Notes: generated by a model from the sequence alone, not told the origin. DNA of 64,000 bases from Ignavibacteriota bacterium (GCA_963776275.1 CAVZMI010000014.1:32001-96000); one strand, 5' to 3'; counted from the first letter of the stretch, positions 7,813 through 45,626 are shown. A program made the numbers and translations.

Positions 7813-7838
7813 TTCTGAAAATGAAGGGTAGTATTCAC

Positions 7839-10017: not shown

Positions 10018-10039
10018 CTTTAATCATTTGGAGAACGAA

Positions 10040-25373: not shown

Positions 25374-25403
25374 GCCGGAGTCAGAAATGATTCCGGCTTT
25401 TTT
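25374..25403 (+). terminator. Rho-independent terminator
   Basis: GCCGGAGTCA-GAAA-TGATTCCGGC followed by TTTTTT. Confidence 0.85.
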
Positions 25404-25590: not shown

Positions 25591-25743
25591 TCCTAAAATC
25601 GCTAAATATTGAGTAATATCAAGCATTATGCCCGTGGCGTTATATCATCAGGGGGTTTCTCTCTCTATATATATAGAGTAATGGTTGAATAATCCGACCG
25701 AGTGAATCCCCACCGGTTTTTTTGCAGTACAGAGATTACAATT

Positions 25744-27090
25744 ATGAGACATGGAAATATCATTATTCCAATTATCCTTATGAGTATATTCCTGTCTATT
25801 TTCCTGCTTGCCTTGCTTCCGCTTCAGCGAAGCGAGCCGGCAAGGCAGGTCTCTGAAGTATCTTCATCAGGCTTTATAGATTCTGCACAGTCAAAGCTGT
25901 CCGGCTCTTATTTTTCAGGAAAATACAGTAATCTCTTTACTGAGGTATTGAGTGAAGAAGAATCGGCAGTAAAAGCCAAAGTCGATAGTGCGTTTGACCA
26001 ATTATTTTATGGGGACAGTAGTACACAACGTATATATTGCCCTGTTGAGCCTGACATGGCATATATTTACAACATTCTCAATAATGATGTACGTACCGAG
26101 GGTATGTCGTACGGGATGATGATCTCTGTCCAGCTAAATAAGAAAAAAGAATTCGACCGATTGTGGAAGTGGTCAAAAACATACATGCAACAACAGAACG
26201 GACCACATAGAGGTTTTTTTGCATGGCATTGTAAGACAAACGGATCGGTTATCGACTCTAATGCTGCCTCCGATGGTGAGGAATGGTTTGTTATGGCTCT
26301 CTTTTTCGCGTCTGCGCGGTGGGGAAACGGGACAGGAATATACAATTATAGAGCAGAAGCTCAGGCAATTTTAGATGCAATGCTTCATAAAGAAGAAGAG
26401 CCGGATAACAATGGAAGAATAACAAATATGTTTAATAAAAAGGAGAAGCAGGTTGTTTTTGTTCCGATGGTTGGAGTTGCAGGTTTTACGGACCCCTCGT
26501 ATCATCTACCTCATTTTTATGAACTCTGGGCGCGATGGGCAGATAAAGATAACCGGTTTTGGTGCGATGCCGCATTTACAAGTCGTCAATTTCTAAAAAA
26601 AGCCGCCAATCCTTCCACGGGATTAATGCCGGATTATGCTCATTTTGACGGATCGCCTATAAATCCCTGGGGTGGGGGGAATAACGATTTCCGTTTCGAT
26701 GCCTGGCGTGTAGCTATGAATGTTGCCGTCGATTATGCATGGTTTGCTAGAGATGATTGGTCGGTAACTCAAAGTAATCGCCTTCTGAATTTCTTTTATT
26801 CCGAAGGAATGTACAAATACGGTGAGCTGTATACGTTAGACGGGAAAAGGTTAACGGACAATCACAGCAGCGGTTTGATAGCCATGAATGGTGTGGCCTG
26901 TCTTGTCTCTACGAATGAAAATAGGAAAGAATTTCTTAAGGAGTTTTGGAATACTCCCGTTCCAAGTGGGATATATCGATATTATAACGGTATGCTGTAC
27001 ATGCTGGGTCTGCTGCATGTCAGCGGCAATTTTAGAATTTATGATCCGACAGGTGGGCCGGTTCCGGCCTGTTCGGACGGACTACATTAA
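25744..27090 (+). CDS. GH8 reducing-end xylose-releasing exo-oligoxylanase (Rex)-like
   Basis: DVRTEGMSYGMM, AASDGEEW, FTDPSYHLPHFYELWA, FRFDAWR, RYYNGMLYMLGLL; N-terminal hydrophobic anchor. Start uncertain (25702 or 25744). Confidence 0.88.
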   Translation: MRHGNIIIPIILMSIFLSIFLLALLPLQRSEPARQVSEVSSSGFIDSAQSKLSGSYFSGKYSNLFTEVLSEEESAVKAKVDSAFDQLFYGDSSTQRIYCPVEPDMAYIYNILNNDVRTEGMSYGMMISVQLNKKKEFDRLWKWSKTYMQQQNGPHRGFFAWHCKTNGSVIDSNAASDGEEWFVMALFFASARWGNGTGIYNYRAEAQAILDAMLHKEEEPDNNGRITNMFNKKEKQVVFVPMVGVAGFTDPSYHLPHFYELWARWADKDNRFWCDAAFTSRQFLKKAANPSTGLMPDYAHFDGSPINPWGGGNNDFRFDAWRVAMNVAVDYAWFARDDWSVTQSNRLLNFFYSEGMYKYGELYTLDGKRLTDNHSSGLIAMNGVACLVSTNENRKEFLKEFWNTPVPSGIYRYYNGMLYMLGLLHVSGNFRIYDPTGGPVPACSDGLH

Positions 27091-27115
27091 AATTGAAATG
27101 AAATGGAGATCGCAT

Positions 27116-30112
27116 ATGCTTTTTATCAGGAATAAAAAACAGAAACAAAATCTGTATGTGCACAAATCATGCCCTCGGATTATGTCTGCCATTCTCATGG
27201 TATTTTTTGCGGTTTTCTTGTTTGCCTCGCCACGGAGTGGATATGCAAATGAAAATGCATTGTATATATCTAAACAAAAAGTGAAAGGGAGTTTTTCACT
27301 TTCCGTAGCTGGCAAAGCCGCTCCCTTATATATCAGTTCCCGGGATTTTCCCGGCGTGATTCGTGTTCTGAAGCACCTTCAGTCCGATATCGGCCGTGTA
27401 ACAAATGTCCTGCCCCGAATTTCGATCGATACCATCCCTGCATCAAAAGAGATTGTCATTGTCGGAACACTGGGTAAGAATTCTTTAATAGATAAATTGG
27501 TACAGCAAAAGAAACTCGACGTTGAGGGTATTACAGGTCGATGGGAGACATTTCTCATTCAGATCGTTGAAAAGCCGTTCCCCGATGTGGACCGCGCTCT
27601 GATAATTACGGGAAGCGATAAGCGGGGTACCATTTATGGTATGTACGACCTCTCGGAAAAGATTGGTGTGTCGCCCTGGTACTGGTGGGCGGATGTACCG
27701 GCAAAGAAAAAATCGAGTCTCTATGTATTGCCGGGACGTTACACACAGGGGGAGCCTAAAGTAAAATACAGAGGCATATTCCTTAACGATGAGGCGCCGG
27801 CATTATCAGGCATGGTCTATGAAAAGTTCGGTGGTTTCAACAGTAAATTCTATGAGCATGTATTCGAACTTATCTTACGATTAAAAGGGAATTATCTCTG
27901 GCCGGCTATGTGGAATAATTCATTCAGCACCGACGACACATTGAATCCCAAACTCGCGGATGCATACGGAGTTGTGATGGGTACTTCACATCACGAACCT
28001 ATGATGAGGGCGTGGAAAGAGTGGGAGTGGGCAGGGAATCGTAAAGGGAGCTGGGATTATTCAAAAAATGCCGATTCATTACGTAGATTCTGGAAAACAG
28101 GCATCCAGCGAACGAAAGATTATGAAAAGATCGTCACACTCGCGATGCGCGGTGATGGCGACGAACCGATGGCCGAAGGTGCCAATATATCCTTGCTCCA
28201 AAGCATTGTTTCAGATCAGCGTAAGATTCTCGGCGAGGTGACCGGAAAAGATGTTACTTCAATACCGCAGGTATGGGCGCTCTACAAAGAGGTACAGGAT
28301 TATTACGATAAAGGAATGCGGGTCCCGGATGATGTTACGTTAATATTGTGCGATGATAACTGGGGAAATATCCGGAGACTCCCGAAGTTGAACGAGAAAC
28401 CCCGCTCCGGCGGATATGGTATTTACTATCATTTCGATTTTGTGGGCGGACCGAGAAACTATAAATGGCTGAACACGACCCAGATCGAACGAGTATGGGA
28501 GCAGATGCATCTTGCCTATGAGTACGGGGCCAGACAGATCTGGATCGTCAATGTCGGTGATCTTAAACCAATGGAGTTTCCGATATCATTCTTCTTAGAG
28601 TATGCATGGGATCCCGGACAATGGCCTGTAGAACGTTTGCCCGAATATACCCGACTGTGGGCAGAACGGCAATTTGGAGCAAAGCATGCAAAGGATATCG
28701 CAGACATCTTGACGAAATACACAAAATATAATTCACGCCGAAAACCCGAAATGCTGGCCCCCGACACCTACAGTCTGGTCAATTACCGGGAAGCCGAAAT
28801 AATCGTTTCCGATTATAACACACTGGCGAAAAAAGCTCAACGTATCTATGAATTAATTCCTCATGAATACAGAGACGCATATTACCAGCTTGTTCTGCAT
28901 CCCGTGCTCGCTTGCTCAAACTTGAACGATCTCTATGTCACTGTCGGGAAAAATCTTCTTTATGCAAAGCAGGGTCGGACAGCGATAAACGCTCTCGCTG
29001 CAAAAGCAAAAAAACTCTTCGATAACGATAGTGCAATTACATACTATTATAATAGAGTAATGGCAAATGGTAAGTGGAACCATATGATGGATCAGACTCA
29101 TATCGGGTACACCTCCTGGCAGCAACCTGATGAGAATTCAATGCCCGAGGTGAAAAAGATTAATACTGACTCTATCAGCGCTGCATCGGAAATGGGTGTT
29201 GCCATAGAAGGCTCAACTGCATGGTGGCCGATGGAAAAGACCGAAGCCGTGCTCCCGGAATTCGATTCGTATAACCGGCAATCGTATTATTTCGAAATAT
29301 TCAATCGCGGGAAAGCTCCGTTTAAGTATTCGATTCAAACCGGAAAACCGTGGATTCAAATCAAACCTGGAAAGTCGGGAATAATTGAGGAAGAGAAACG
29401 GTTGTGGGTAAGTGTCGATTGGAAGAACGTACCGAAGCAAAGTAAGGGGAATGAAAGGATTCCAATCACCATTACAGGACCAAATAAAAGCCCCGTTGTT
29501 ATTCAAGCAGTGATTAATCTTCCTCAATTACCGCATGTAAAAGGTTTTATTGAGAGTAACGGATATGTTTCGATCGAGGCTGAACATTATAGCAAGGTCG
29601 TTGAAACTCCTAATATATCGTGGTTGCGAATTGCAAATTTAGGACGTACGCTATCGGCGATGACCCCTGTTCCTGTCACGGCGTCAACTCAATCTCCCGG
29701 CGGTAACAGTTCTCATATGGAATATCAAATGGTTTTATTCGATACAGGAGAAGTCAGGGTGAAGGCATATCTTTCTCCGACTATGAACCTTCTCGATGGG
29801 CAGGGTCTCCACTATGCCGTTTCTTTCGATGACGAACTGCCGTACATCGTGAATATATATGAAAACGATACAATGCCGGATTGGATATATCCGCCGCAAT
29901 GGTGTCAGGCAGTAGGCGATAATATAAAAATTAAAACCTCTACTCACTCCATCCATAAACCTGGAGAACATGTCCTGAAATTCTGGATGGTGGATCCGGG
30001 TGTGGTGCTGCAAAAATTGGTAATCGAAACCGGCAAAGTCAGGTCAAGTTATTTAGGACCGCCTGAAAGTATTCGTAGCGGATCAAAACCGATTAAGGGG
30101 AGTACAAAATGA
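27116..30112 (+). CDS. GH115 xylan alpha-(4-O-methyl)-glucuronidase
   Basis: GSDKRGTIYG, VKYRGIFLNDE, NYLWPAMW, GTSHHEPM, MRGDGD, DDNWGN, GIYYHFDFVGGPRNYKW, WIVNVGDLKPME. ATG 27116 follows GGAG. Confidence 0.93.
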   Translation: MLFIRNKKQKQNLYVHKSCPRIMSAILMVFFAVFLFASPRSGYANENALYISKQKVKGSFSLSVAGKAAPLYISSRDFPGVIRVLKHLQSDIGRVTNVLPRISIDTIPASKEIVIVGTLGKNSLIDKLVQQKKLDVEGITGRWETFLIQIVEKPFPDVDRALIITGSDKRGTIYGMYDLSEKIGVSPWYWWADVPAKKKSSLYVLPGRYTQGEPKVKYRGIFLNDEAPALSGMVYEKFGGFNSKFYEHVFELILRLKGNYLWPAMWNNSFSTDDTLNPKLADAYGVVMGTSHHEPMMRAWKEWEWAGNRKGSWDYSKNADSLRRFWKTGIQRTKDYEKIVTLAMRGDGDEPMAEGANISLLQSIVSDQRKILGEVTGKDVTSIPQVWALYKEVQDYYDKGMRVPDDVTLILCDDNWGNIRRLPKLNEKPRSGGYGIYYHFDFVGGPRNYKWLNTTQIERVWEQMHLAYEYGARQIWIVNVGDLKPMEFPISFFLEYAWDPGQWPVERLPEYTRLWAERQFGAKHAKDIADILTKYTKYNSRRKPEMLAPDTYSLVNYREAEIIVSDYNTLAKKAQRIYELIPHEYRDAYYQLVLHPVLACSNLNDLYVTVGKNLLYAKQGRTAINALAAKAKKLFDNDSAITYYYNRVMANGKWNHMMDQTHIGYTSWQQPDENSMPEVKKINTDSISAASEMGVAIEGSTAWWPMEKTEAVLPEFDSYNRQSYYFEIFNRGKAPFKYSIQTGKPWIQIKPGKSGIIEEEKRLWVSVDWKNVPKQSKGNERIPITITGPNKSPVVIQAVINLPQLPHVKGFIESNGYVSIEAEHYSKVVETPNISWLRIANLGRTLSAMTPVPVTASTQSPGGNSSHMEYQMVLFDTGEVRVKAYLSPTMNLLDGQGLHYAVSFDDELPYIVNIYENDTMPDWIYPPQWCQAVGDNIKIKTSTHSIHKPGEHVLKFWMVDPGVVLQKLVIETGKVRSSYLGPPESIRSGSKPIKGSTK

Positions 30113-30289
30113 ATGTAGTAATACGGCGTATTACGATTGGTTCGAGTATCAGGGGAATGACGAAGTGTACAAATAGTACGAATAAAATGGTGTACTGTGA
30201 ACACAAATAAATATACTTTTAAGGATATTGCTTCGTCAAATAATAATATATGAGAAATACATAAAAGCTAAAGGATAGGGAAATTAAAC

Positions 30290-31948
30290 ATGGCACAATT
30301 TATCAAGAAAAATGGACTGATAATCGCTCTTCTGATTTGTCTCCCGATCTTCAATCGAATGGATATTCTTGCAGCAGATGGAAGAGTGAAGGTAAGCGAG
30401 ACCCATCAGACAATGGAAGGCTTTGGAGCTTCGGTAGCATTCTATGTAAACTGGCTCACAAATCATCCGAATAGAGTAGATATTTATGATTTGGTCTGTA
30501 ATGATCTCGGATTGGATATTATCAGGCTTCAGAATGTCTATCGGGGTTCAGGGGGTGATTTTGATCCGGACGCAAAACAGATCGTCGAGCAGATGAATGC
30601 AATTGCGTTGGTCCCTCCTCTAGTCATGCTCTCTTCCTGGTCGCCGCCGGGAAATTTAAAGAGTAATGGGGTTCCTGAAAATGGCGGAACCTTGATTAAG
30701 GAAAACGGCAAATATGTCTATGGTGCCTTTGCACAGTATTGGGTCGATGCCCTGAACGCGTATGCGGCTGAGGGGGTCATACCGAATTATATCGGCATAC
30801 AAAATGAACCCGATTGGTCCTCGTCGTGGGCAACATGCCTCTTTGATGGTGCAGAGAATTCTACTCATGCCGGATATAATCGTGCGCTCGATTCCGTCTA
30901 TTTTGCTCTTCAACAAATGTCGTCGCCTCCGAAAATCATGGGTCCCGAAGTCCTTGGAATCGGATATAACCATTTCCAGAGTTATGCCAACCAATTCAAT
31001 CATGCCCATTTGGATGCATATGCATATCATTTGTATCACGGAGAATCTGACAATGTTAATGATAATCATAATCCGGACCTATTCATCCCGAATCTCTCGG
31101 GGATAGCAGCGAGTTATCCGGGAAAACCGATCTTTCAGACAGAATACGACCGGGGCGATTGGTTTAATACTGTCTGGTTGATAAACAATTGTCTGGTGAA
31201 TGGTAATGTTTCAGCATATTTATATTGGGAATTGACCTGGGATAAGGGCCCCGGGACAGCGTTGATCGGTCTGGAAAACCCTTGGAGCCCGGGAGGTTGG
31301 ACCACAACAGGGGGGTATATTTTAACCAACTATTACTGGGGATTCAGACAGTATTCAAAATATATCGATGCCGGATGGAAAAGAGTAACGACGGAGGTAG
31401 ATGTGGATAGTCTTCGAATGTCCGCTTTCATCAGTCCGGATGGAGATTATCTGACTGTCGTGATTCTGAATATTGCTAGTTCACCCAGGACGATGGCCGT
31501 TGATATTCAGGATTTCAACGTTATCGACGGAATAATTGTACGTACTTCCGACACAGAACAGGGTGTAATGATAAATGGTAGTTATGATGGTAAAGCAGCG
31601 ACAGAATTTCCCGCCCGCACGATTAGTACAATGGCATTTGCAGGTGCATCGACAAATAAGGCGAAAGAGGCGCCGTACAAACCTGCAGAATTCTCATTGT
31701 ATCAGAACTATCCGAATCCATTTAATCCTGTGACGGATATCGATTATTTGATAACGTCGCAAAGTTATGTCCAGATAAAAGTATATGATGTATTAGGACG
31801 TGAGGTAGCGATGTTGGTGAATGAAAAAATGCCGGCTGGAAGGCATACGGTTCATTTTGAAGCGAATGATTTGAATTCAGGAGTCTATTTATACCGGCTC
31901 AAGGCTGGAAACTTCATTCAAACGAAAAAGATGATTCTGATAAAATAG
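30290..31948 (+). CDS. Secreted GH30 (glucurono)xylanase-like hydrolase with T9SS CTD
   Basis: HQTMEGFGAS, SSWSPP, IQNEPD acid/base, YHLY, FQTEY nucleophile, AYLYW; QNYPNPFNP tail. Confidence 0.85.
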   Translation: MAQFIKKNGLIIALLICLPIFNRMDILAADGRVKVSETHQTMEGFGASVAFYVNWLTNHPNRVDIYDLVCNDLGLDIIRLQNVYRGSGGDFDPDAKQIVEQMNAIALVPPLVMLSSWSPPGNLKSNGVPENGGTLIKENGKYVYGAFAQYWVDALNAYAAEGVIPNYIGIQNEPDWSSSWATCLFDGAENSTHAGYNRALDSVYFALQQMSSPPKIMGPEVLGIGYNHFQSYANQFNHAHLDAYAYHLYHGESDNVNDNHNPDLFIPNLSGIAASYPGKPIFQTEYDRGDWFNTVWLINNCLVNGNVSAYLYWELTWDKGPGTALIGLENPWSPGGWTTTGGYILTNYYWGFRQYSKYIDAGWKRVTTEVDVDSLRMSAFISPDGDYLTVVILNIASSPRTMAVDIQDFNVIDGIIVRTSDTEQGVMINGSYDGKAATEFPARTISTMAFAGASTNKAKEAPYKPAEFSLYQNYPNPFNPVTDIDYLITSQSYVQIKVYDVLGREVAMLVNEKMPAGRHTVHFEANDLNSGVYLYRLKAGNFIQTKKMILIK

Positions 31949-32035
31949 GAATGCGACCAATAATTTGAAAAAGTAAGTAACGATAGCAATCGGGGAAAAT
32001 GTTCTTAAATAAAAAAAATATTTGAGGGTCTATCA

Positions 32036-32707
32036 ATGAATGATTTGGTTGAAAGAATTGGCCAAAGTGTTGAACGTGGAAAAATCAATAAGACATCGCC
32101 TTATCCGAGTGACATGAAGGGTCTGGACGGTGCCGATGAGTTGACGCGTCAGGCTTTGGATGCAGCTGTCGGCCCTGATTTAATCCTGCAGGCATGCAAC
32201 GATGGGATGAAGCGAATTGGAGCAAAATTCAGTAGAAATGAAGTATTTGTTCCGGAACTGTTGATGGCTGCCAAAGCCATGAAGGCAGTGATGGCCCACC
32301 TTAAACCATTTTTCCAATCGGGCAGTGTTAAAGCGAAAGGGAAATTTATCATCGGTACCGTTGCAGGCGACCTGCATGACATTGGTAAGAATCTTGTGGC
32401 AATGGTCGTAGAAGGCAATGGCTGGGAAGTCATAGATCTTGGCGTCGATGTTAAACCGACAAAATTCATTGAGACCATAAAAGAAAATCCCGGTTGTGCA
32501 GTCGGCCTGAGCGCCCTGCTGACGACGACCATGGCTAACATGTCGAAAACGGTCGAAGAAATCAGGGCTCAATTTCCTGCAATAAAAGTTATCGTTGGGG
32601 GCGCACCCGTTACTATGGAAGCCGCCTTGAAAATGGGTGCAAATGGATATTCGCCCAATCCGCAGGGTGCAGTTGCATTTCTTGATAAAGTTAATATTCC
32701 CGGATAA
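32036..32707 (+). CDS. Cobalamin-binding corrinoid protein (MtaC/MttC/MetH B12-domain-like)
   Basis: Cap domain FVPELLMAAKAM; DLHDIGKNLV (DxHxxG); DLGVDV; GLSALLTTTM; VIVGGAP. Confidence 0.95.
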   Translation: MNDLVERIGQSVERGKINKTSPYPSDMKGLDGADELTRQALDAAVGPDLILQACNDGMKRIGAKFSRNEVFVPELLMAAKAMKAVMAHLKPFFQSGSVKAKGKFIIGTVAGDLHDIGKNLVAMVVEGNGWEVIDLGVDVKPTKFIETIKENPGCAVGLSALLTTTMANMSKTVEEIRAQFPAIKVIVGGAPVTMEAALKMGANGYSPNPQGAVAFLDKVNIPG

Positions 32708-32724
32708 ATCATTATAGTGTAAAA

Positions 32725-33609
32725 ATGAGATCTCTGCTCGCAGCACTCAAAAATAGAAAAATTCTGGTCTCTGACGGGGCATGGGGTACTTTCCTGCATC
32801 AACGCGGGTTGCCGCCTGGAGAATGTCCGGAGTTATGGAATATCACGCATCGTGACGATGTCTTCGCAATTGCAAAAAGTTATATCGATGCGGGCGCTGA
32901 CATGATCCTGACAAACAGTTTTGGCGGCAGTCCATTGAAACTTGAACATTATGGCCTAAAAAATCGGGCTGCAGAGCTTAACGAAGTCGCCGCAGCAATC
33001 TCGAGAGGTGCGGCAGGAGAAAGCCATCTCGTGCTCGGCTCCATCGGGCCGACCGGCGCAGTGTTGATGATGGGGCAGGTTTCTGAACAAGAATTATATG
33101 ATGGTTTTTTTATTCAGGCTGAATCGCTGAAAAAAGGCGGGGTGGATGCAATATGCGTTGAGACTATGTCTGCAATTGATGAAGCGTGCCTGGCTATACG
33201 CGCAGCCAGAGAAGCCACCGGACTTGAAGTTGTCTGCACATTTACATTCGAAAGAACCGTCGCCGGTGAATACCGCACGATGATGGGCGTTTCTCCCGTT
33301 GAAATGGTGCATGCGGTTAAGGATGCGGGAGCTGCGATTATCGGGACCAACTGTGGTAATGGATTTGACCAGATGATTGATATTGTTAATGAAATCAGAG
33401 AAGTGGACCGGTCAACACCGGTGCTTGTTCATGCCAATGCCGGAAAACCCACGCTTAGTGATGGTAAAACAGTCTTTCCGGAAACACCGGAAATGATGGC
33501 GGCAAAAGTTCGAGACCTGATAAAAAGCGGAGCCAATATAATCGGCGGCTGTTGCGGTACAACGCCGGCTCATATCCGGGCGCTGGCGAACGAAATAAAA
33601 AAGTACTGA
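32725..33609 (+). CDS. Homocysteine S-methyltransferase family protein (stand-alone MetH Hcy-binding domain)
   Basis: DGAWGT, AGADMILTNSFG, GSIGPTG, VETM, GTNC and IIGGCCGTTP (three Zn-ligand Cys), NAGKP. Confidence 0.93.
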   Translation: MRSLLAALKNRKILVSDGAWGTFLHQRGLPPGECPELWNITHRDDVFAIAKSYIDAGADMILTNSFGGSPLKLEHYGLKNRAAELNEVAAAISRGAAGESHLVLGSIGPTGAVLMMGQVSEQELYDGFFIQAESLKKGGVDAICVETMSAIDEACLAIRAAREATGLEVVCTFTFERTVAGEYRTMMGVSPVEMVHAVKDAGAAIIGTNCGNGFDQMIDIVNEIREVDRSTPVLVHANAGKPTLSDGKTVFPETPEMMAAKVRDLIKSGANIIGGCCGTTPAHIRALANEIKKY

Positions 33610-34361
33610 TGAATATTATTATGCCTCAAGCCGAACGACCAGATGAGATTGTTGAAGTCCCAATAGACTTCAACGATCTTACAGTAAGCAAAAATGAGAT
33701 TGAGTTTTCACTTGGATATTCCGAAGATAAAATTCCATCGCATTTTGAAGAAATGATAGATGATATTCTATCGCAGTTATCGGGACGTTGTGAAATAAGT
33801 GCCGGATACCGGATCGTCGATGTCAAAAAGCCTGTTGACCGGTATGACGGTCTATATGTCGGAGGTAAGTTTTTCAAGATGCAAAAGATCGTTACCGGTC
33901 AGCTCAGGAAAGCCGAAAAGGCGGCGTTATTTGTCTGTACCATCGGACCAAAAATGGAAACATGGGCCAGACAACTTATGCAGAATGGTGATACTGTGGC
34001 AAGTCATATCGTTGATACAATCGCGTCGGAGGTAGTAGAAAGTGCGACCGATATATTGCATGATCGTATAGAGCAACAAATGCGGGTACATGGGATGAGC
34101 GTAACCAATAGATACAGCCCGGGTTATTGTGACTGGTCGGTATCTGAACAACATTTGCTCTTTTCATTTCTCCCGGCAAATTTTTGTGGCATAAAATTAA
34201 CGGAATCCGCACTGATGGTGCCGATTAAATCTATCAGTGGTATTATCGGAGTCGGTGCAACAGTCAAGCGTGCAGACTACATATGCGATCGATGTGGAAT
34301 AAAAGACTGCACTTATCGGGCGTTCCTTTTAGCGCGAAACCAGCGTATCATTCATAAATAA
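33609..34361 (+). CDS. Stand-alone B12-dependent methionine synthase reactivation (AdoMet-binding) domain protein
   Basis: ALFVCTIG, RYSPGYCDW, GIKLTESALMVPIKSISGIIG, C-terminal CxxCxxxxC. TGATG coupling with the upstream gene. Confidence 0.88.
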   Translation: MNIIMPQAERPDEIVEVPIDFNDLTVSKNEIEFSLGYSEDKIPSHFEEMIDDILSQLSGRCEISAGYRIVDVKKPVDRYDGLYVGGKFFKMQKIVTGQLRKAEKAALFVCTIGPKMETWARQLMQNGDTVASHIVDTIASEVVESATDILHDRIEQQMRVHGMSVTNRYSPGYCDWSVSEQHLLFSFLPANFCGIKLTESALMVPIKSISGIIGVGATVKRADYICDRCGIKDCTYRAFLLARNQRIIHK

Positions 34362-34395
34362 ATTCATATCGAATTATAGGGAAAGAACAAATAGA

Positions 34396-35420
34396 ATGAC
34401 AGATCGACAGTGGGAAATGCTGAAGAGCGTCATTAAAGGTGAAATTCTAGATCCTTTTCCAGTCGGCTTTATTATTGATTCTCCATGGTTGCCGAACTGG
34501 TGCGGGATCAGGATACTCGATTATTTTTCGAATGATGAATTATGGTTTGATGCAAATATGAAGGTGCTTACCAAGTTTCCGGATGTAATTTTTTTACCCG
34601 GATTCTGGTCGGAATTTGGTATGTGCACGGAACCGTCGGCTTTCGGGTCCGCTGCACGTTTCCATCGAACGAGTTCCCTCATCCACATAAATTAATCCAA
34701 TCAGTTGATGAGATCGATTCATTGCCTTTACCGAATCCCAGAACGGACGGTCTGTTGCCGTTTGTGCTGAATCGATTGAAACTTGCACAATCAAAAATTG
34801 AGAGAGCGGGTCACAGGATTCGCTTTGCCGTCGCCCGCGGACCCCTGAATATCGCCAGCTTCCTGATGGGTTCGACAGAATTTCTAACGACCATGATGAT
34901 GCAGCCGGAGAAAGCCGAAGAACTCATGAAAAAGGTTACCGCTTTTCTTAAAGACTGGCTGCATCTGCAAATGGAGACATTTCCTTCTATCGATGGTATT
35001 TTTTTGCTCGATGACATCATCGGTTTTTTAGGTGAAACGGAATTTTGCACATTCGGTTTGCCATTTTTTAAGGAATTATTTGATGTTAACGTTTCTCTAA
35101 AATTATTACATAACGACGCACACTGCAAAGTATCTGCACCGTATCTGCCTGAGATGGGCGTTAACATGTTTAACATGGGTTTTGATATCACACTCAACGA
35201 AATAAAACAATTGACAAAGAACAAAATAGCATTAATCGGGAACATTCCTCCGAGAGATGTTCTTGCAAGCGGTGATATCACCAAAATAACAAAGACGACC
35301 ATGGATCTGGTTGATTCTCTGAAGGATAAATCGAAAGTTATTTTTTCGTGTGGTGGCGGTATGCCGCCGGGTGTAAGTACTGAAAGTATAACGGCTTTCA
35401 TTAATGCGACCAGAAAATAA
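34396..35420 (+). CDS. Uroporphyrinogen-decarboxylase-fold (MtaA/CmuA-like) methyltransferase; frameshift near 34645-34651
   Basis: EPSAFG in ORF 34396..34695 continues as RCTFP...RGPLNIASFLMG...LDD...LHND...IGNIPP...FSCGGGMPPG in ORF 34623..35420. Confidence 0.82.
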
Positions 35421-35428
35421 GCAGGCAA

Positions 35429-37381
35429 ATGAAATCACAAATATTGAATATATCATTGGTAGTCGGGTTACTGATTTTAATAAATGTCGCTTGTGGTTAC
35501 AGTAAAGAAAACCGTATTGATAGTCCTAACGGCTTTGTCAGAGTTGAGCTGAATTTGAACGATCAGGGGACACCTGAATTCAACGTTTTGTTTTCAGAAA
35601 ACCCTGTTATGAAAAATAATCGTCTGGGTCTGATCAGGGACGATGGTGATTTTTCAAAAAACCTCCGCATGATATCGGTTTCATCGACAGAGGAAATTGA
35701 AGATCAATACACTCTCCTGTCGGGGAAAAAAAATAATTGTACATATCGGGGAAACAGAAAAGTCTTCCATTTTAAGAACAGGGAAGATGAAGAATTTGAT
35801 ATTATTTTTCAGGTTTCAAATGATGGCGTTGCATTCCGGTACTATTTCCCGGGGAAAAACGGTGAAATTAAAAGGATAAGCGACGAGCTCACACGCTTCA
35901 GTTTTGACGACAACACACATGCATGGATTCAACCGATGTCGGCAGCAAAGTCGGGATGGAATTCAGTGAATCCCTGTTACGAAGAGCATTACTTCCACGA
36001 TATCAATATCGTGAAGTTACCCGATAACGAACCCGGATGGGTATTTCCTGCATTATTTAAATCGGGAAATTACTGGATTGTGCTGGCTGAAACCGCTCCG
36101 GATCGCAATTATTGCGCATGCAGGCTAATCCACGATAGCACCGGTTTTAAGATCGGATTTCCACAAAAAGCTGAAGTCTTCCCGGGAGGTTCCCTTAACC
36201 CCGAATCGAAAATACCCTGGTATACGCCGTGGCGAATTATTACACTCGCCGACAATCTCAGGACTCTGGTAGAATCCACTCTGGGCACCGATCTAGCGAA
36301 ACCGTCTGTACTCTCGGATATTTCATTTGTAAAGCCCGGCAGATCATCGTGGAGCTGGGTATTGTTTAAGGATGATTCGACTGTTTTTCATGTGCAGAAA
36401 AGATTTGTCGATTATGCCGCCGATATGGGTTGGGAGTATTGTCTGGTTGATGCCGACTGGGACCGGAAAATCGGTTATGAAAAACTCGGTGAACTCTGTA
36501 ATTATGCGGCATCGAAGGGCATCGGTATTACTGCCTGGTACAATTCAGCCGGCAGTTGGAACACCACACCATATACACCGCGCGATAAATTGCTTACGAA
36601 AGTACTTCGTGATACCGAATTTAAAAAATTAAGAGGCCTTGGAGTAAAGGGAATAAAGGTTGATTTTTTTGGTGCCGACGGCCAGTCGATGATAGTCTAT
36701 TATCAGGATATTATCGAAGATGCAGCCCGGAACGGACTCATGATAAATTGCCATGGTTCTACCATACCACGAGGATGGCAGCGCACCTATCCAAATCTTG
36801 TTTCGATGGAGGCGATCAGAGGATTTGAGTATATCACCTTTGAACAGCTTAATGCCGACAGGGAGGCCGGTCATTGCACAGTAATTCCATTTACACGCAA
36901 TCTTTTTGATCCGATGGATTTCACGCCGGTCTGTTTCAGTGAGGTACCGAACATTCAAAGAAAGACCACCAACAGCTTTGAACTGGCACTCTCGGTTCTG
37001 TTTCTCTCCGGCGTTCAGCATTTTGCCGAGGTTCCCGAAGGTATGGCTAAAGTCCCGCCTGAAGTTCGGCAATTCTTGAAAGACATCCCCTCTGCATGGG
37101 ATGAATCGAGATTCGTCGATGGGTATCCGGGGAAACATGTGGTTATCGCACGACGGAAAGCAGATGTATGGTATATCGGAGGGATCAACGGTGAACGGAT
37201 TGAAAAAACTCTCGATCTCGATGTGAGTTTTATCCGCAATCCCGGGAAAAATATTCTCATCACGTGCGGCAAGGACAACCGCTCCTTTACACTACGCAAC
37301 GAGAATCTTGATGGCACCCGTCCGTTAAAAATTACTTTGAAGCCGGATGATGGTTTTGTCTTTCGTATTTCAGGAAAATAA
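35429..37381 (+). CDS. GH97 glycoside hydrolase
   Basis: SNDGVAFRY, TPWRII, KPGRSSWSW, LVDADW, GIKVDFF, NCHG, RTYPN, EAIRG.E, PMDFTP; signal peptide. Confidence 0.92.
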   Translation: MKSQILNISLVVGLLILINVACGYSKENRIDSPNGFVRVELNLNDQGTPEFNVLFSENPVMKNNRLGLIRDDGDFSKNLRMISVSSTEEIEDQYTLLSGKKNNCTYRGNRKVFHFKNREDEEFDIIFQVSNDGVAFRYYFPGKNGEIKRISDELTRFSFDDNTHAWIQPMSAAKSGWNSVNPCYEEHYFHDINIVKLPDNEPGWVFPALFKSGNYWIVLAETAPDRNYCACRLIHDSTGFKIGFPQKAEVFPGGSLNPESKIPWYTPWRIITLADNLRTLVESTLGTDLAKPSVLSDISFVKPGRSSWSWVLFKDDSTVFHVQKRFVDYAADMGWEYCLVDADWDRKIGYEKLGELCNYAASKGIGITAWYNSAGSWNTTPYTPRDKLLTKVLRDTEFKKLRGLGVKGIKVDFFGADGQSMIVYYQDIIEDAARNGLMINCHGSTIPRGWQRTYPNLVSMEAIRGFEYITFEQLNADREAGHCTVIPFTRNLFDPMDFTPVCFSEVPNIQRKTTNSFELALSVLFLSGVQHFAEVPEGMAKVPPEVRQFLKDIPSAWDESRFVDGYPGKHVVIARRKADVWYIGGINGERIEKTLDLDVSFIRNPGKNILITCGKDNRSFTLRNENLDGTRPLKITLKPDDGFVFRISGK

Positions 37382-38619
37382 TGGATAGAATTTTATACTC
37401 TGTTCTCCTTATCATCGTTCCGGTATTTTCTTCGTGCGGCATGCCTGTGATGACACAGGATTCGTCAGCCACCGAGGAAAAGCTCCGAACCATTGCCTCG
37501 ATGATACTCAGGGACGCGACATTCCAGTTTGTAGATCAGAAGAGCGGACAGCGATATCGCACTCCCCAAGATGCATCGCCGGATATTCAGATAGGGCTGG
37601 AAAGTCCCTATAACGATTGGCGGTACTGGAACGGCGTTCTGAATATCGCGATGATCAGACTGGCCGAAGTACTTCGTGAGCCGGCATATGCCGAATTTTC
37701 GTTCAGGAATATCGCTTTTAGCTTCGATCACTACCAATATTTTGAAAAGATGTATAAAGGCGAAGGGAAGTGGAACTATCCTTTCGGGCAGCGGTTCATC
37801 ATGGAAGAATTGGACGACTGCGGTGCTATGGGTGCAAGTGTCATTGAAGTGTACCGCCGTGATCCGCAGGATCGCTATCGCGCATATATCGATCAGGCTG
37901 CCGAACATATATCCGTAATACAAAATCGAATGGAGGATGGAACTCTTGTACGGTCGTTCCCGCGAAAATGGACACTCTGGGCGGATGATCTGTACATGGG
38001 ACTCTCGTTCCTGACTCGTATGGGTGAATTGACGGGTGAAAGCCGCTATTTCGACGATGCAGCCCGGCAGGTTATCAACTACCATAAATACCTTTTTGAC
38101 GGGGAGCTAGGACTCATGCATCATTGCTGGTATTCGGATCTCCAGCGTCCGGGTATTGCCTACTGGGGGCGTGCGAATGGGTGGGCACTGTTGGCACAAA
38201 TCGATTTACTCGATCGATTGCCGAACAATCATCCTCAGCGTGATACATTGCTCCTCCTTCTTCAACGACACATCAAAGGGATCGCACGGTATCAAAGCAG
38301 CGAAGGCCTGTGGCATCAACTGCTAGACAAACCAGATTCATTTCTGGAAACATCCTGCAGTGCGATGTTCACGTATGTGACGGCACGAGCCGTCAATAAA
38401 GGGTATATCGATGCGAGTTTTATTCCGGTCGCTCTGCAGGGATGGCAGGGAGTGATTTCGAAGATACATCCGGATGGACAGATCGAAGGTATTTGCACCG
38501 GAACCGGAGTCAGTGAGAATCTGCAATTCTACTATCAACGACCGACACCGCTCAATGATGTCCATGGTATTGGCGCGATATTGCTGGCCGGTACAGAGGT
38601 GCTGCAACTGCAAAAGTAA
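37381..38619 (+). CDS. GH105/GH88 unsaturated glycuronyl hydrolase, probable lipoprotein
   Basis: LDDCG, LWADDLYM, WGRANGW, GLWHQLLD, ETSCSAMF, ICTGT; FSSC lipobox. Confidence 0.9.
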   Translation: MDRILYSVLLIIVPVFSSCGMPVMTQDSSATEEKLRTIASMILRDATFQFVDQKSGQRYRTPQDASPDIQIGLESPYNDWRYWNGVLNIAMIRLAEVLREPAYAEFSFRNIAFSFDHYQYFEKMYKGEGKWNYPFGQRFIMEELDDCGAMGASVIEVYRRDPQDRYRAYIDQAAEHISVIQNRMEDGTLVRSFPRKWTLWADDLYMGLSFLTRMGELTGESRYFDDAARQVINYHKYLFDGELGLMHHCWYSDLQRPGIAYWGRANGWALLAQIDLLDRLPNNHPQRDTLLLLLQRHIKGIARYQSSEGLWHQLLDKPDSFLETSCSAMFTYVTARAVNKGYIDASFIPVALQGWQGVISKIHPDGQIEGICTGTGVSENLQFYYQRPTPLNDVHGIGAILLAGTEVLQLQK

Positions 38620-38663
38620 TCCGTTCAGCGGATATTACAGATGTATATCTTTATTAGTCACTT

Positions 38664-41195
38664 TTGGATATTATGATATTTACTCAAAGGCATCTATTGT
38701 TTTCCAAAGCAGGGAAATCGATTCTCCTTTTAATATCTAATCTTCTTTTTGTTGGATTCTGTCAAGCCCAAATTCCCGGAGTTGATCTGAAGTTAAATAA
38801 TCTCGGATATTTTGAAACACGTGGGCTCGATATACTGGTTTTCAATAACTGGTACGACAGCAATTTCGGCGATGCAAAAATGAGCGGAGTTGAAATTATC
38901 CATCATGGGGTGCGTACAGCAACCAACGGCGATGTGAGACTCAGCCCTACACCCGCACAATGGGATTCCATTCCGCGACTCGTAGAACGCAGAGTGAATA
39001 AAAAAGATAGTAGTATTGAAGTTTTTTTACAATATCCTGCATATGCCTTTGCTTACATGATCAAAGCCCAGGCACATGACGGAGGCATTCTTCTAAGCGT
39101 CAATCTTGAAAAACCGATACCTAAAGACCTTGAAGGTTGTGCCGGGTTCAATTTCGAATTTCTTCCTTCCGCGTATTTTGAAAAAACATATCTGGTGGAC
39201 GGTAAAAGCGGCATTTTCCCATTATATCCTACCGGACCCATGGAAGCAAAGGAGTCAGGTAAGGTTCAACCCTTGCCGATCGCCTCAGGGAAATCTTTTG
39301 TACTTGCCCCGGAAGATCCGGCTCGACGAATTACCATCAAAACCAAAGACAGCGAACTTCTTCTATATGATGGCCGCAACATGGCACAGAACGGCTGGTT
39401 TGTGATTCGCAGCCTTCTTCCTTCCGGAAAATCAGGTAAAGTAATCGAATGGTTTCTCGAAGCCGGTACAATTCCGGGCTGGACGCGGCCGCCGGTGATT
39501 GCGCATTCACAGATCGGATATCATCCCGATCAAATAAAAATTGCGGTGATTGAATTAGATAAAAACGATACTTCACTCCAGTCGGCGCGCTTGCTTCAGG
39601 TACGTGAGGATGGAGAATTCGTCGAAATATTTAAGGGCGATCTAAGAACTTGGGGCGGGTATCTCCGGTACAATTATTCTACCTTTGATTTCTCGTCCGT
39701 AAAAGAGAGCGGCCTGTACGTCATTGAATATAATTCAGTTCGAACAAAACCATTCAGAATAGCAGCCGACATTTATAAAAATGCATGGCACCCGACACTC
39801 GATATTTTTTTCCCGGTTCAGATGGATCATATGAGAGTCAGGGAAGCTTACCGGATTTGGCATGGTGCATCTCATCTTGACGATGCGTTACAGGCTCCGG
39901 TGAATCATGAACATTTCGATCTATATGCGCAGGGTCCGACAACGGATTCTCCGTATAAACCGGGCGAGCATATTCCCGGTTTAAATATCGGAGGCTGGTA
40001 TGATGCCGGCGATCACGATATCCGGACTCAGACTCAATATTATACAGTATTAAATCTGGTCCATGTGTGGGAGACTTTCGGTTTACGGCGGGATGAAACA
40101 ACAATAGACCAGAAAAAACGCTATGTGGAAATACATCATCCAGATGGAATTCCCGACCTTCTACAACAGATAGAGCATGGCGCGCTTGCTCTCATAGCTC
40201 AACATCGGGCTGTCGGTCACGCAATTCCAGGTATCATAGTGCCCGATCTCTCACAATATACGCATCTGGGCGACGCGGCATCAATTACGGACAATCTCGT
40301 ATACAATTCCAAGCTGAAACCGCTCGAGACCGATGGATTCACTAGCGGTACGTTCGATGATCGATGGGCATTTACCAGCAAATCTACTCCGTTGAATTAT
40401 GGCTCAATTGCTGCACTCGCCGCGGCGAGTCGCGCCCTTCATGGATACAATGACACGCTGGCTGATGAATGTCTGGCAACAGCAAGAAAAGCGTGGGACG
40501 AAGAACACAGCCATGAGCCGGATATTTTTTATCACGGGAACACCGCCGGAGGTTTGTTGGAGATAGAGGAAATGCAGGCGAGTGTCGAACTTTTACTCTG
40601 CACGAAAGAAACCAAGTACGCAGATAGAATAAACGAGCTGCTGCCAAAAATTGAAAATAGATTCGGTTTCATTGCCGGGATGGTTGTTCGCGCCATACCT
40701 TATATGGATGTGGCATATTCAAAAAATATTGAAGATCTTGTAAGGGACTACAAATATACTCTCGATAAGTTGAACGAACAGAATCCCTTCGGTGTCCCTA
40801 TTACCGCCGGTAACTGGGGAGGAGTAGGAGCAGTTATGGGATTTTCATTGACGAATTATTTTTTGCATAAATCTTTTCCCCAGATTATTGGAAAGGAATA
40901 TGTTTTTAATGGATTGAACTATATTTTTGGATGCCACCCGGGTTCCGACATTTCGTTCGTCTCGGGTATAGGAACTCAATCGAAGAGAATCGCCTATGGG
41001 AACAACCGTGCTGATTATTCATTCATTGCCGGCGGCATAGTTCCGGGAGTCCTTATTCTTAAGCCGGATTTCCCCGAAAATAAAGAAGATTGGCCCTTCC
41101 TGTGGGGAGAGAATGAATATGTAATCAGTATGGGATCAATTTATATTTATCTGGTAAATGCAGCAAACGAATTATTGAACAGTACTGGGGATTGA
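38664..41195 (+). CDS. GH9-family glycoside hydrolase with N-terminal extension and Ig-like domain
   Basis: SQIGYHP...K.AV, GGWYDAGDH, LNYIFGCHP...SFVSGIG, WGENEY. Start uncertain. Confidence 0.85.
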   Translation: MDIMIFTQRHLLFSKAGKSILLLISNLLFVGFCQAQIPGVDLKLNNLGYFETRGLDILVFNNWYDSNFGDAKMSGVEIIHHGVRTATNGDVRLSPTPAQWDSIPRLVERRVNKKDSSIEVFLQYPAYAFAYMIKAQAHDGGILLSVNLEKPIPKDLEGCAGFNFEFLPSAYFEKTYLVDGKSGIFPLYPTGPMEAKESGKVQPLPIASGKSFVLAPEDPARRITIKTKDSELLLYDGRNMAQNGWFVIRSLLPSGKSGKVIEWFLEAGTIPGWTRPPVIAHSQIGYHPDQIKIAVIELDKNDTSLQSARLLQVREDGEFVEIFKGDLRTWGGYLRYNYSTFDFSSVKESGLYVIEYNSVRTKPFRIAADIYKNAWHPTLDIFFPVQMDHMRVREAYRIWHGASHLDDALQAPVNHEHFDLYAQGPTTDSPYKPGEHIPGLNIGGWYDAGDHDIRTQTQYYTVLNLVHVWETFGLRRDETTIDQKKRYVEIHHPDGIPDLLQQIEHGALALIAQHRAVGHAIPGIIVPDLSQYTHLGDAASITDNLVYNSKLKPLETDGFTSGTFDDRWAFTSKSTPLNYGSIAALAAASRALHGYNDTLADECLATARKAWDEEHSHEPDIFYHGNTAGGLLEIEEMQASVELLLCTKETKYADRINELLPKIENRFGFIAGMVVRAIPYMDVAYSKNIEDLVRDYKYTLDKLNEQNPFGVPITAGNWGGVGAVMGFSLTNYFLHKSFPQIIGKEYVFNGLNYIFGCHPGSDISFVSGIGTQSKRIAYGNNRADYSFIAGGIVPGVLILKPDFPENKEDWPFLWGENEYVISMGSIYIYLVNAANELLNSTGD

Positions 41196-41281
41196 CAATA
41201 AAAATAAAAGAGAAGTTCTGCCAGGGAAAAATAAAATTTCTATTGGGGGAGAACAACCTGACAAGAGAAGGGGAGATTAAC

Positions 41282-44248: not shown

Positions 44249-45626
44249 ATGATGTATCGTAAACTAACAATCGAAAAAGCGGAGGACCTGATTTTTGGGT
44301 ATGCTCCGCATCCTGTTACAACTCCACGGGGATTAGTCATCGGAGGCGGATTTGTATATCCCGAATTGAATTTTACTTTACCCCCGATGCAAATAAATAA
44401 TGAAACCTTATCAGAGGTGAAAGGCCACTATCGCCAGATAGTTACAGATGCGCTCGAGCATGCCGTGCATCTTCATTCGAGAGGAGTAATACTCGAGTTT
44501 GAGACCCTGACCGAAATGACACAAACGCCCGATATAGGTGTTGAACTGATAAAAATCATGAATGAAATCTGTGAAAATTATTATGTGCAGCATGGTTTGA
44601 AAAGCGAAATCAGATTGACTCCGAACGATCTGCGTGAGTTTGAAAGGCCGCCCAGGCAGAGGACATCCCATCTGCTGCAACCAATGCTGGAGTTATTCGA
44701 GAGAGGAGCCCGGGCCGGAGGAGATATGTTGTCGATCGAATCAACCGGAGGGAAAGAAATTTCCGATGACGCGCTTATGATGTGTGATATGAAACAATTT
44801 ATATTCAGCCAGTCGGTATTGGGGGTGCGCGACATGCAGATGCTCTGGGGAAAAATAGTAGAGATTGCTTCCCGTACGGGGAAAATCGCCGGAGGTGATA
44901 CGGCATGTGCATTCGGCAATACGGCTATGGTACTGGCCGAGAGAAAATATATCCCTAAGATTTTTGCTGCGATCGCAAGGGTAGCCACTGTCGTACGGAC
45001 GCTGGTGGCAGTCGAGAAAGGAGCGCGAGGTGCCGAATAAGGACTGCGCATACGAAGGACCGTACCTGAAGGCGATTACAGGCATTCCGATTTCAATGGA
45101 AGGAAAAACTTCCGCCTGTGCTCATTTCAGTCCCCTGGGAAATATCGCCGCAGCCTGTGCTGATCTGTGGAGCAACGAAACGGTTCAAAATATTAAATTG
45201 CTCTCAGGGATGGCGCCTACAGTATACCTTGAACAACTTGAATATGACACAAGGCTTATGAACCAGGCAGTTATATGTGGAAAGGGCGAGATACTTCAAC
45301 TCCAAAAACTCTTTGTCAATTCGGATGTTTATTTCGATCCGCAGGCATTTGTGCTTTCGCCCGATAATGTCATAGAAATCTCGAAAGAAATTGTGAAGGG
45401 TGAAAGCTATATCGACGCAACGAAGCGGGGCTGCCTGAAAGCGTTGGCTCTCGTTGCGGAGGCAATAAAAACGGGCCGGGTGATCCGCGATCCTAAGGAA
45501 GACGAATGGTTCATCATTCTCCGACAGGATATTGAAATGATACCTGTTAATGAATCGGATTTCGTGGAGCTGGTTCTACCCACTTTAGATCAAACGAAGC
45601 TACTCTTAAATGAGTATGGCTTATGA
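44249..45626 (+). CDS. mtaB: Methanol:corrinoid methyltransferase MtaB; frameshift near 45032
   Basis: DLIFGYAPHPVTT..GLVIGGG.VYPELNF, LSIESTGGKE, GDTACAFGNTAM. Removing one G gives GARGPNKDCAYEG...ITGIPISMEGKTSACAH.SPLGN...DLWSNE.VQN. Putative Zn ligands Glu/Cys/Cys are retained. Confidence 0.92.

Follow-up and report, generated by a model that had tools for sequence, protein, structure and literature searches.

A proposed modular corrinoid methyltransferase system in a putative glucuronoxylan operon of an Ignavibacteriota bacterium, with 4-O-methyl-glucuronate as candidate methyl donor

The stretch of Ignavibacteriota DNA analyzed here, 64,000 nucleotides long and hereafter called the window (G000:C14:32001-96000, from a source genome, G000, of 3.70 Mb in 38 contigs that is 96% complete), carries at 32036-35420 four genes, all on the plus strand, that encode a corrinoid protein, a homocysteine (Hcy) S-methyltransferase, a reactivation protein, and a protein with the UroD/MtaA fold. 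We propose that these genes form a modular corrinoid system in a glucuronoxylan operon, with 4-O-methyl-glucuronate as the preferred methyl donor, a reading that we regard as somewhat probable. It builds on the domains of the four proteins, their gene order, a linkage to GH115 and other xylan genes at the level of both the locus and the genome (GH, glycoside hydrolase family), the exchangeability of the modules among relatives, and a modeled interface between the UroD-like and corrinoid proteins.

The four proteins of the cluster

The first gene (32036..32707, +) encodes a 223-residue corrinoid (B12-binding) carrier made up of a cap and a Rossmann domain (PF02607, E 8e-16; PF02310, E 4.5e-26). 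Its D-x-H-x-x-G loop, G111-D-L-H-D-I-G-K118, is invariant across 28 homologs, and among NCBIfam models those for MtgC, the pyl_corrinoid subfamily, and MtbC come nearest, each scoring below its cut-off. The second gene (32725..33609, +) encodes a 294-residue homocysteine S-methyltransferase of the methyl-corrinoid:homocysteine type (the acceptor-side methyltransferase, MT2), which matches PF02574 over the full model (E 3.2e-68) and has the Hcy module of Thermotoga maritima MetH as its best solved relative (1q7m, E 8.5e-46). The motifs GTNC and GGCCGTTP are kept, and C210 and C276/C277, which we take to be the zinc ligands, align with the cysteines of the GxNC and GGCCG motifs of 1q7m.

The third gene (33609..34361, +) encodes a 250-residue stand-alone reactivation protein of the MetH type, with an S-adenosylmethionine (SAM or AdoMet) domain (PF02965, E 9.8e-13; best solved relative 1j6r, E 1.4e-7). 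Judging from the sequence, the likely start codon is the ATG at 33609, overlapping the stop codon (TGA) of the upstream Hcy gene by a single base; a TTG at 33552 was considered as the start and set aside. The stretch RYSPG (R168-Y-S-P-G172), C174, and the motif C226-x2-C229-x4-C234 are invariant among 19 aligned homologs, three of which are distant (26-38% identity); the RxxxGY pattern is presumably the motif of AdoMet-reactivation domains. The four invariant cysteines (C174, C226, C229, and C234) probably make up a metal or Fe-S site through which electrons would enter. An earlier note on this DNA had described three MetH modules (B12-binding, Hcy-binding, and reactivation) as separate adjacent genes, and both the Pfam matches and the solved relatives bear this out. 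The CxxCxxxxC motif that the note had seen at the C terminus of the reactivation protein is likewise real, being invariant in the 19 homologs, and is joined by a fourth cysteine directly after RYSPGY. We refer to these three genes as the trio.

The fourth gene (34396..35420, +) encodes a predicted donor-side methyltransferase (MT1) of 341 residues when intact. The earlier note had assigned the UroD/MtaA fold to the gene after the reactivation gene; PF01208 confirms the fold (E 5.6e-29 on the 3' piece), though the note had missed that in this assembly the gene lies in two frames, 34396-34695 and 34623-35420. A syntenic locus in a genome of the same genus (G001), whose proteins are 90-99% identical to those of the window, has the gene as a single 341-residue frame, and the sole indel between the two UroD-like genes is one G missing from a G-run at about 34645. 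The extra G is also present in peat-metagenome contigs that are ~95% identical to the window. A programmed frameshift is unnecessary to explain the two frames, as the gene has an additional G and reads through in a single frame in both G001 and the metagenome contig. Other genes of the assembly are also split: mtaB (see below) lies in two frames, owing to an additional base at 45032, and is uninterrupted in G001, and metH (C7:1517-4991), hemE (C12:26651-27670, three pieces), and uxaC (C21:271229-272621, three pieces) are broken as well. Because metH, hemE, and uxaC are in pieces too, we read the frameshifts as probable assembly indels, and the splitting of so many conserved genes by single-base indels suggests systematic assembly errors rather than pseudogenes.

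An AlphaFold2 model of the UroD-like protein is a confident TIM barrel (predicted local distance difference test, pLDDT, 96.8), for which Foldseek returned UroD (4wsh, E 6e-17) and methanogen MtaA (4ay7, E 3e-14, template modeling scores 0.79/0.80). The protein belongs to a tight family with identities of 64-81%. Because its best 120 database matches are 75-81% identical, and the full-length relatives outside the family (110 representatives at E <= 1e-30 in a 50%-clustered library) reach at most 53%, we regard the family as narrow and strongly constrained. C77, C87, H140, H239, C244, and C319 are invariant within it, and across distant relatives only H239 and G282 are. H239, C244, and C319 resemble what we take to be the His/Cys/Cys zinc site of MtaA. 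An identity as HemE was rejected: the TIGR01464 score is 51.4 bits against a cut-off of 303, the IPDALG stretch of the solved UroD 4zr8, which holds the catalytic-Asp motif, aligns with TEPSAFG in the UroD-like protein, and a separate hemE exists on contig C12.

The orthologue was confirmed in at least 554 species genomes of a one-genome-per-species collection. Among the matches listed, the lineages are Ignavibacteriota/Melioribacteraceae (including Melioribacter roseus), Bacteroidota, Chitinispirillaceae, Calditrichota, KSB1, Marinimicrobia/Fidelibacterota, Opitutaceae/Verrucomicrobia, and Spirochaetales, and the carriers belong to lineages from peat, sediment, and digesters.

When the corrinoid and UroD-like proteins were modeled as a complex, the pair scored 0.79, and the best of three controls scored 0.00. 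In a calibration, 58 of 80 solved complexes and two of 110 mismatched pairs scored this high, counts that are only rough because alignments made for this analysis were used. The runs share at least 78% of their contacts, and the pLDDT of the partner is at least 93. On the carrier side, the modeled interface consists of the cap helix 68-80 and the His-loop 115-120, past the cobalt-ligand histidine; on the barrel side, it comprises residues 159-171, 210-216, and 243-246, around the invariant C244. The model supports binding of the corrinoid protein by the UroD-like protein.

Linkage to glucuronoxylan genes

The four genes lie inside a same-strand array with the order GH8-GH115-GH30-Corr-Hcy-React-UroD-GH97-GH88-GH9-unknown (25702..42778, +; Corr, corrinoid protein; React, reactivation protein), delimited by gene spacing and a terminator scan. 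Intergenic gaps around the four genes range from -1 to 87 nt. The scan revealed no convincing terminator within the array, and the only intergenic terminator-like sites on the plus strand near it, at 25374-25397 and 42808-42828, both fall outside. The array is therefore putatively one operon for glucuronoxylan. Its GH115 gene (26888..30112, +; PF15979, E 3e-157) encodes a xylan alpha-(4-O-methyl)glucuronidase with an apparent signal peptide, and its GH30 product carries a tail of the type IX secretion system (T9SS).

The association with GH115 extends to the genome level. Among 151 genomes of the phylum, G000 included, the UroD-like orthologue (E <= 1e-60) was found in seven and GH115 in 21; GH115 is present in 7/7 carriers of the orthologue and in 14/144 of the others (one-sided Fisher P = 3.8e-7, a value that is overstated because the genomes, from 6 genera, are related). 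In five of the six carriers other than G000, the UroD-like gene and GH115 lie within 25 kb of each other on one contig. Twelve genomes outside the class of the window have GH115 and no UroD-like orthologue, so the module is not a universal companion of GH115.

We then compared the 80 best UroD-like loci with the proteins of the window and clustered their open reading frames (ORFs). The corrinoid and Hcy genes lie upstream of the UroD-like gene in 31 of the 61 loci with at least 3 kb of upstream sequence, joined by the reactivation gene in 26 of these 31, and wherever the trio adjoins the UroD-like gene the order is always Corr-Hcy-React-UroD, in several phyla. GH115 is nearby in 24 of the 50 loci with at least 8 kb upstream; these 50 divide into 11 with the trio and GH115, 14 with the trio only, 13 with GH115 only, and 12 with neither. 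The UroD-like gene is thus usually preceded by Corr-Hcy-React, by GH115/GH43, or by both. Other recurrent neighbors (number of loci) are GH43 beta-xylosidase (26), a LacI regulator (16), GH88 (14), an MFS_1 transporter (14), a PF00756 esterase (12), GH10 (11), GH8 (10-14, by method), xylulokinase (10), a short-chain dehydrogenase/reductase (SDR, 10), UxuA (8), xylose isomerase (8), UxaC (4), and a PurU-like formyl-tetrahydrofolate deformylase (4). None of seven xylan/uronate marker families (GH115, GH43, GH10, GH8, xylulokinase, xylose isomerase, and UxuA) occurs in 18 of the 48 loci of at least 15 kb.

The PurU-like deformylase (Formyl_trans_N and ACT domains) lies directly 5' of the UroD-like gene at L039:9093-9983 and in three other loci, and UxaC, UxuA, and an aldo/keto reductase follow 3' of the UroD-like gene in these loci. 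Such neighbors hint that some lineages may oxidize the methyl group by a folate-linked route.

With half of the loci lacking adjacent corrinoid genes, and with true decarboxylases as the best matches in fold and sequence, one may ask whether the UroD-like protein is instead a decarboxylase, or an enzyme of that sort, that needs no cofactor and acts on an acid derived from xylan, the trio being a separate fellow traveler. We looked for the trio elsewhere in five genomes that have GH115 and the UroD-like gene side by side and no adjacent trio. All five encode a stand-alone corrinoid protein, whose gene adjoins the reactivation gene in one genome and an Hcy methyltransferase gene in another, which speaks against such an enzyme; two of the five gave no match to the reactivation protein, which speaks for it. 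The UroD catalytic-Asp motif is not retained, the UroD-like gene and the trio keep one fixed order in 31 loci of several phyla, the alternative partners described below (Pterin_bind, MTHFR, and a corrinoid protein) are again a methyl-transfer set, and the modeled complex passes its controls. We give the decarboxylase very little credence.

Exchangeable donor and acceptor modules

In five of the 80 loci the UroD-like orthologue is followed by a Pterin_bind protein, with MTHFR also present in four of the five and a match to the corrinoid protein 3' of the UroD-like gene in three. A more distant UroD-like gene in another genome (G005) occurs with a corrinoid protein, an Hcy methyltransferase, MTHFR, and Pterin_bind, beside GH88, GH115, GH10, and a PfkB kinase. 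As the UroD-like protein pairs with either of two acceptor-side methyltransferases, it is most simply placed on the donor side, as an enzyme that would couple to a homocysteine or a tetrahydrofolate acceptor. The donor side varies as well: in two genomes the trio is joined to a methyltransferase of the MttB family (PF06253) in the order MttB-React-Corr-HcyMT (L024:7587-12034 in G028; L025:8142-11511 in G003). These clusters have the look of a quaternary-amine:homocysteine methyltransferase that depends on a corrinoid and uses the same trio as its acceptor side, and the trio may therefore be read as a reusable acceptor core with exchangeable donors. At the locus studied here the MT2 is the Hcy module, and the pterin-type MT2 of corrinoid O-demethylases is absent.

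A further arrangement was seen in the genome G040 (L020:8997-14220), where a corrinoid and a reactivation gene are followed by a PfkB sugar kinase, a UroD family gene, a small ORF, and a second UroD family gene; no Hcy methyltransferase was found within the examined part of this cluster.

The earlier note had reported no pterin-binding domain in the 64 kb, which holds, and had called for a genome-wide search for Pterin_bind, metH, and metE. PF00809 matches the genome twice, both times inside a canonical four-module metH on contig C7 that also carries S-methyl_trans, B12-binding, and a C terminus resembling the activation domain; metF is located on contig C3, and metE was not found in the genome. 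Neither the PF00809 search nor tblastn with a relative's stand-alone pterin-binding protein revealed a stand-alone pterin-binding protein in the genome, and the split trio lacks the pterin-binding module with which MetH uses methyl-tetrahydrofolate. The trio as the cell's sole methionine synthase is ruled out by the canonical metH and metF, and since these are kept, the trio is unlikely to exist for methionine supply.

These results bear on the possibility that the trio is an ordinary split or spare methionine synthase, fed with methyl-tetrahydrofolate by a pterin module acting in trans, and that the UroD-fold gene is an unrelated neighbor. The Hcy and B12 modules are indeed MetH-like, and the genome makes methyl-tetrahydrofolate, metF being present; separately encoded MetH modules also exist, as the available part of a report shows (PMC12478193). 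However, the only pterin domain of the genome belongs to a full-length MetH equipped with B12, Hcy, and activation modules of its own, the Corr-Hcy-React-UroD order is conserved across phyla, and the cluster is embedded in a glycoside-hydrolase operon. Moreover, an Rfam scan of the window gave no family above threshold, hence neither a B12 (cobalamin) nor a SAM riboswitch of the kind typical of methionine genes. We judge an ordinary split methionine synthase to be highly improbable.

The second donor candidate of the earlier note was MtaB. A gene for an MtaB-family methanol:corrinoid methyltransferase does lie 9 kb downstream (44249..45626, +; PF12176, E 2.3e-86 and 1e-60 for its two pieces) and is a possible second donor module, but MtaB recurs in just 3/80 related loci, where it is an occasional accessory. 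The note's proposal that the folate module is replaced by the UroD-fold protein and/or MtaB thus fares well as regards a replaced donor, in view of the trio without a pterin partner, the conserved Corr-Hcy-React-UroD order, and the MttB-family swaps. It fares poorly as regards MtaB, which is rare in related loci, and as regards a folate-independent methionine synthase, given the canonical metH and metF and the pairing with Pterin_bind in 5/80 loci. Because the same orthologue occurs with Pterin_bind and MTHFR elsewhere, folate independence belongs to this variant and not to the family.

The presence of MtaB raises the question of a bacterial counterpart of the MtaABC methanol system, in which MtaB would methylate the carrier from methanol released from methyl esters of pectin or xylan, and the UroD-like protein would be an MtaA-type MT2 passing the methyl group to some thiol, with the Hcy module as a parallel outlet. 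MtaB in the window and in three of the 80 loci would fit, as would the weak match of the UroD-like protein to MtaA/CmuA subfamily models, a structural match to MtaA (4ay7) as good as that to UroD, and the likeness of H239/C244/C319 to what is presumably the zinc site of MtaA. Yet MtaB is missing from 77 of the 80 loci, which would leave most systems without a methyl donor, and a UroD-like protein already paired with an Hcy or Pterin_bind MT2 would be a redundant second MT2. At the level of NCBIfam equivalogs, none of the window proteins qualifies as MtaB (215 and 154 bits against 720), MtaC (88-92 against 420-450), or MtaA (43.7 against 400), the Pfam domain of MtaB being clear nonetheless. 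We consider such a methanol system very unlikely.

Proposed pathway and its substrate

In the pathway that we favor, with 4-O-methyl-glucuronate as methyl donor, GH115 would free 4-O-methyl-glucuronate from xylan, and the sugar acid would then be imported into the cell. There, the cytoplasmic UroD-like MT1 would transfer the methyl group of the xylan-derived ether, most likely 4-O-methyl-D-glucuronate, to Co(I) of the corrinoid protein, a step that a Lewis-acid site formed by H239/C244/C319 may assist. The Hcy module would pass the methyl group from methyl-Co(III) to homocysteine, yielding methionine, and the demethylated glucuronate would enter the isomerase pathway of uronate catabolism, for which uxaC is present in G000 (contig C21, in pieces). 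Oxidized Co(II) would be repaired by the activation protein through reductive methylation with SAM, with the electron possibly entering via the four-cysteine (Cys4) site, and MtaB may add a methanol-derived methyl group to the same carrier. Which way the methyl group moves, what the substrate is, that homocysteine accepts it in vivo, and what the Cys motif does are all matters of inference. Given the constant glucuronoxylan setting (GH115, GH43, GH10, and uronate genes), the removal or salvage of the xylan-derived methyl group is the likelier purpose of the system. That it represents a widespread, O2-independent, B12-dependent sugar O-demethylase, which passes the methyl group of xylan 4-O-methyl-glucuronate to homocysteine or, in some lineages, to tetrahydrofolate, is a wider claim that we hold tentatively.

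The same machinery could act instead on methoxylated phenolics such as ferulate, sinapate, or vanillate, freed by esterases from arabinoxylan or lignin-carbohydrate complexes, much as acetogens demethylate aromatics with their O-demethylases, again with homocysteine or tetrahydrofolate as acceptor. Aryl methyl ethers are chemically the easier substrate. The PF00756 esterase occurs in 12 of the 80 loci, immediately downstream of the UroD-like gene in eight, and other esterases of the alpha/beta-hydrolase type flank the gene in two loci (L101 and L107); characterized O-demethylases of the UroD superfamily, OdmB and VdmB, use phenyl methyl ethers according to the available part of a preprint (bioRxiv 10.1101/2023.07.31.551370). 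On the other hand, the commonest non-corrinoid neighbors are GH115 and GH43, not esterases, and GH115 accompanies the orthologue in all seven carrier genomes. UxaC, UxuA, the SDR, and the MFS transporter recur in the loci, no aromatic-ring catabolism genes were found among the recurrent neighbors scanned, and the family, at 22-53% identity to its nearest relatives, is a distinct lineage. We regard a phenolic substrate as unlikely.

Several observations weigh against 4-O-methyl-glucuronate as the donor or against the system as a whole. Foldseek and sequence searches cannot separate a UroD-type from an MtaA-type kinship of the UroD-like protein, and C244 and C319, which may be Zn ligands, are invariant inside the narrow family but not across distant relatives. 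The complex score is a measure of model confidence, behind which a general likeness to known methyltransferase-corrinoid pairs may lie. Adjacent corrinoid and Hcy genes are missing from 30 of the 61 loci, and 12 of the 50 lack both the trio and GH115. In the five genomes searched for a trio elsewhere, the stand-alone corrinoid proteins are only 45-58% identical to that of the window, and the reactivation protein was matched in three (one close match, one distant, and one inside a full-length MetH). An esterase of the CE1 type (carbohydrate esterase family 1; PF00756, feruloyl-type) lies immediately 3' of the UroD-like gene in eight loci, a context that a methoxylated phenolic such as ferulate matches about as well as 4-O-methyl-glucuronate does. 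Demethylating an alkyl methyl ether is chemically more demanding than demethylating the aryl ethers on which known O-demethylases act. Homocysteine would be a poor bulk sink, as the methyl groups of xylan would far exceed the need for methionine unless this is turned over, and the genome has no stand-alone pterin-binding protein to drain the surplus. UxuA was not found in the 96%-complete genome. Finally, both candidate donor genes, the UroD-like gene and mtaB, are frameshifted, and the system could be dead in this strain.

Relation to known systems

According to genetic work in Ruegeria, a split MetH and a substrate demethylase share one corrinoid protein (PMC12478193). The MtgBCDE system of Ruegeria pomeroyi and Phaeobacter inhibens described there also has separate B12, Hcy, and donor proteins, and one corrinoid protein serves both substrate demethylation and methionine formation, as we propose here. 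In that text, the donor MtgB belongs to the MttB family, the pterin-binding protein MtgD is indispensable, and the reactivating role is assigned to RamA/DUF1638; the window system differs in its UroD-fold donor, the lack of a stand-alone pterin-binding protein, the MetH-type AdoMet reactivation, and its place in a polysaccharide locus. No Ram/RACE activase families were detected among 30 window ORFs in a Pfam scan, and the whole genome was not searched for them.

Aromatic O-demethylases of anaerobes consist of an MT1 of the OdmB/VdmB type, a corrinoid protein, a pterin-binding MT2, and an ATP-dependent activator. The window system shares with them an MT1 of the UroD superfamily, a small corrinoid carrier, and a separate MT2, and the five of 80 related loci with a pterin-type MT2, four of them also with MTHFR, come closer still. 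It differs in the homocysteine acceptor, the MetH-type activator with its Cys4 motif, the non-acetogenic fiber-degrading hosts, and the predicted sugar methyl ether substrate. With the Methanosarcina methanol:coenzyme M methyltransferase MtaABC it has in common an MtaB homolog, an MtaC-like carrier, and a UroD-fold protein, all in the window; equivalog scores far below the cut-offs, the lack of a coenzyme M context, and the loci without MtaB (77/80) set it apart. TM0269 of T. maritima (1j6r) is, like the reactivation protein, of which it is the closest solved relative, a stand-alone MetH activation domain. It has a glycine where the window family has the invariant C174, and the alignment stops short of CxxCxxxxC, a motif past the aligned portion of the 214-residue chain.

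UroD-superfamily enzymes are known as corrinoid O-demethylases from OdmB and VdmB, and the available part of the same preprint (bioRxiv 10.1101/2023.07.31.551370) also describes the Type 1 mlp clusters of Kountz and Balskus, which are widespread in bacteria, combine homologs of UroD-superfamily methyltransferases with a corrinoid protein, and have no folate methyltransferase. These clusters hold two to three Mlp paralogs with a Ram/RACE activase and are linked there to methyl-sulfur or methyl-selenide metabolism, in contrast to the single UroD-like gene, Hcy methyltransferase, MetH-type activator, and xylan context of the window. A candidate sugar O-demethylase encoded in a polysaccharide utilization locus has a parallel in marine porphyran loci, for which Reisky et al. 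in 2018 reportedly described a cytochrome P450 that demethylates 6-O-methyl-galactose oxidatively, requires O2, and releases formaldehyde. The window system, unlike this P450, would be independent of O2 and would conserve the methyl group.

In a literature search, with most subscription journals outside its scope, no paper was found that connects 4-O-methyl-glucuronate with corrinoid or UroD-type enzymes or that tells how anaerobic bacteria dispose of its methyl group; the passages on 4-O-methyl-glucuronate and demethylation in PMC13425298 concern only a glucuronoyl esterase assay. What appears new is the joining of a UroD-fold donor to a homocysteine acceptor and to a MetH-type activator that bears a Cys4 motif, together with the constant home of this set in the glucuronoxylan loci of non-acetogenic fiber degraders and the carbohydrate substrate that this implies. 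If the proposal is correct, this would be the first corrinoid methyltransferase to act on a carbohydrate and would supply a missing step of anaerobic glucuronoxylan catabolism, unlocking 4-O-methyl-glucuronate as a carbon source. Fiber-degrading anaerobes of many phyla would turn cell-wall methyl ethers into methionine by a folate-independent route, the availability of B12 would be tied to plant-fiber degradation, and an O2-free demethylase would be on offer for biomass conversion. If the substrate is a phenolic, O-demethylase systems with a homocysteine acceptor would extend to non-acetogenic polysaccharide degraders.

Other features of the window and genome

Elsewhere in the window lie genes for a SusC-like receptor, GH94, two GH3 enzymes, GH10, GH116, a PfkB kinase, and sugar transporters. 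Three ORFs 3' of the SusC-like receptor have no Pfam match (7821-9731, 10028-10729, and 10790-11854, all +), and the first of these, with 636 residues, occupies the slot of a SusD-like lipoprotein. A promoter scan of the window was uninformative, with 45 sites against 40.3 expected.

Within the array, the GH88 gene (37381..38619, +) encodes an unsaturated uronyl hydrolase of the GH88/GH105 type that recurs near the UroD-like gene in 14 related xylan loci. Its recurrence raises the question of whether the locus also processes 4,5-unsaturated side chains of the hexenuronic type, into which 4-O-methyl-glucuronate would turn on losing methanol. The last gene of the array (41192..42778, +) encodes a 528-residue protein without a Pfam or NCBIfam match, which is kept beside GH88 in G001 (90% identity), in G005 (59%), and in four of the 80 related loci; it may be an unrecognized carbohydrate-active enzyme of the same pathway.

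In the 96%-complete genome, no dihydropteroate synthase gene (folP) was detected. Since PF00809 matched only inside metH and folP went undetected, the organism may depend on external folate. A third S-methyl_trans gene, a stand-alone ORF of 347 residues (E 3.4e-33), is located at G000:C23:331829-332818.

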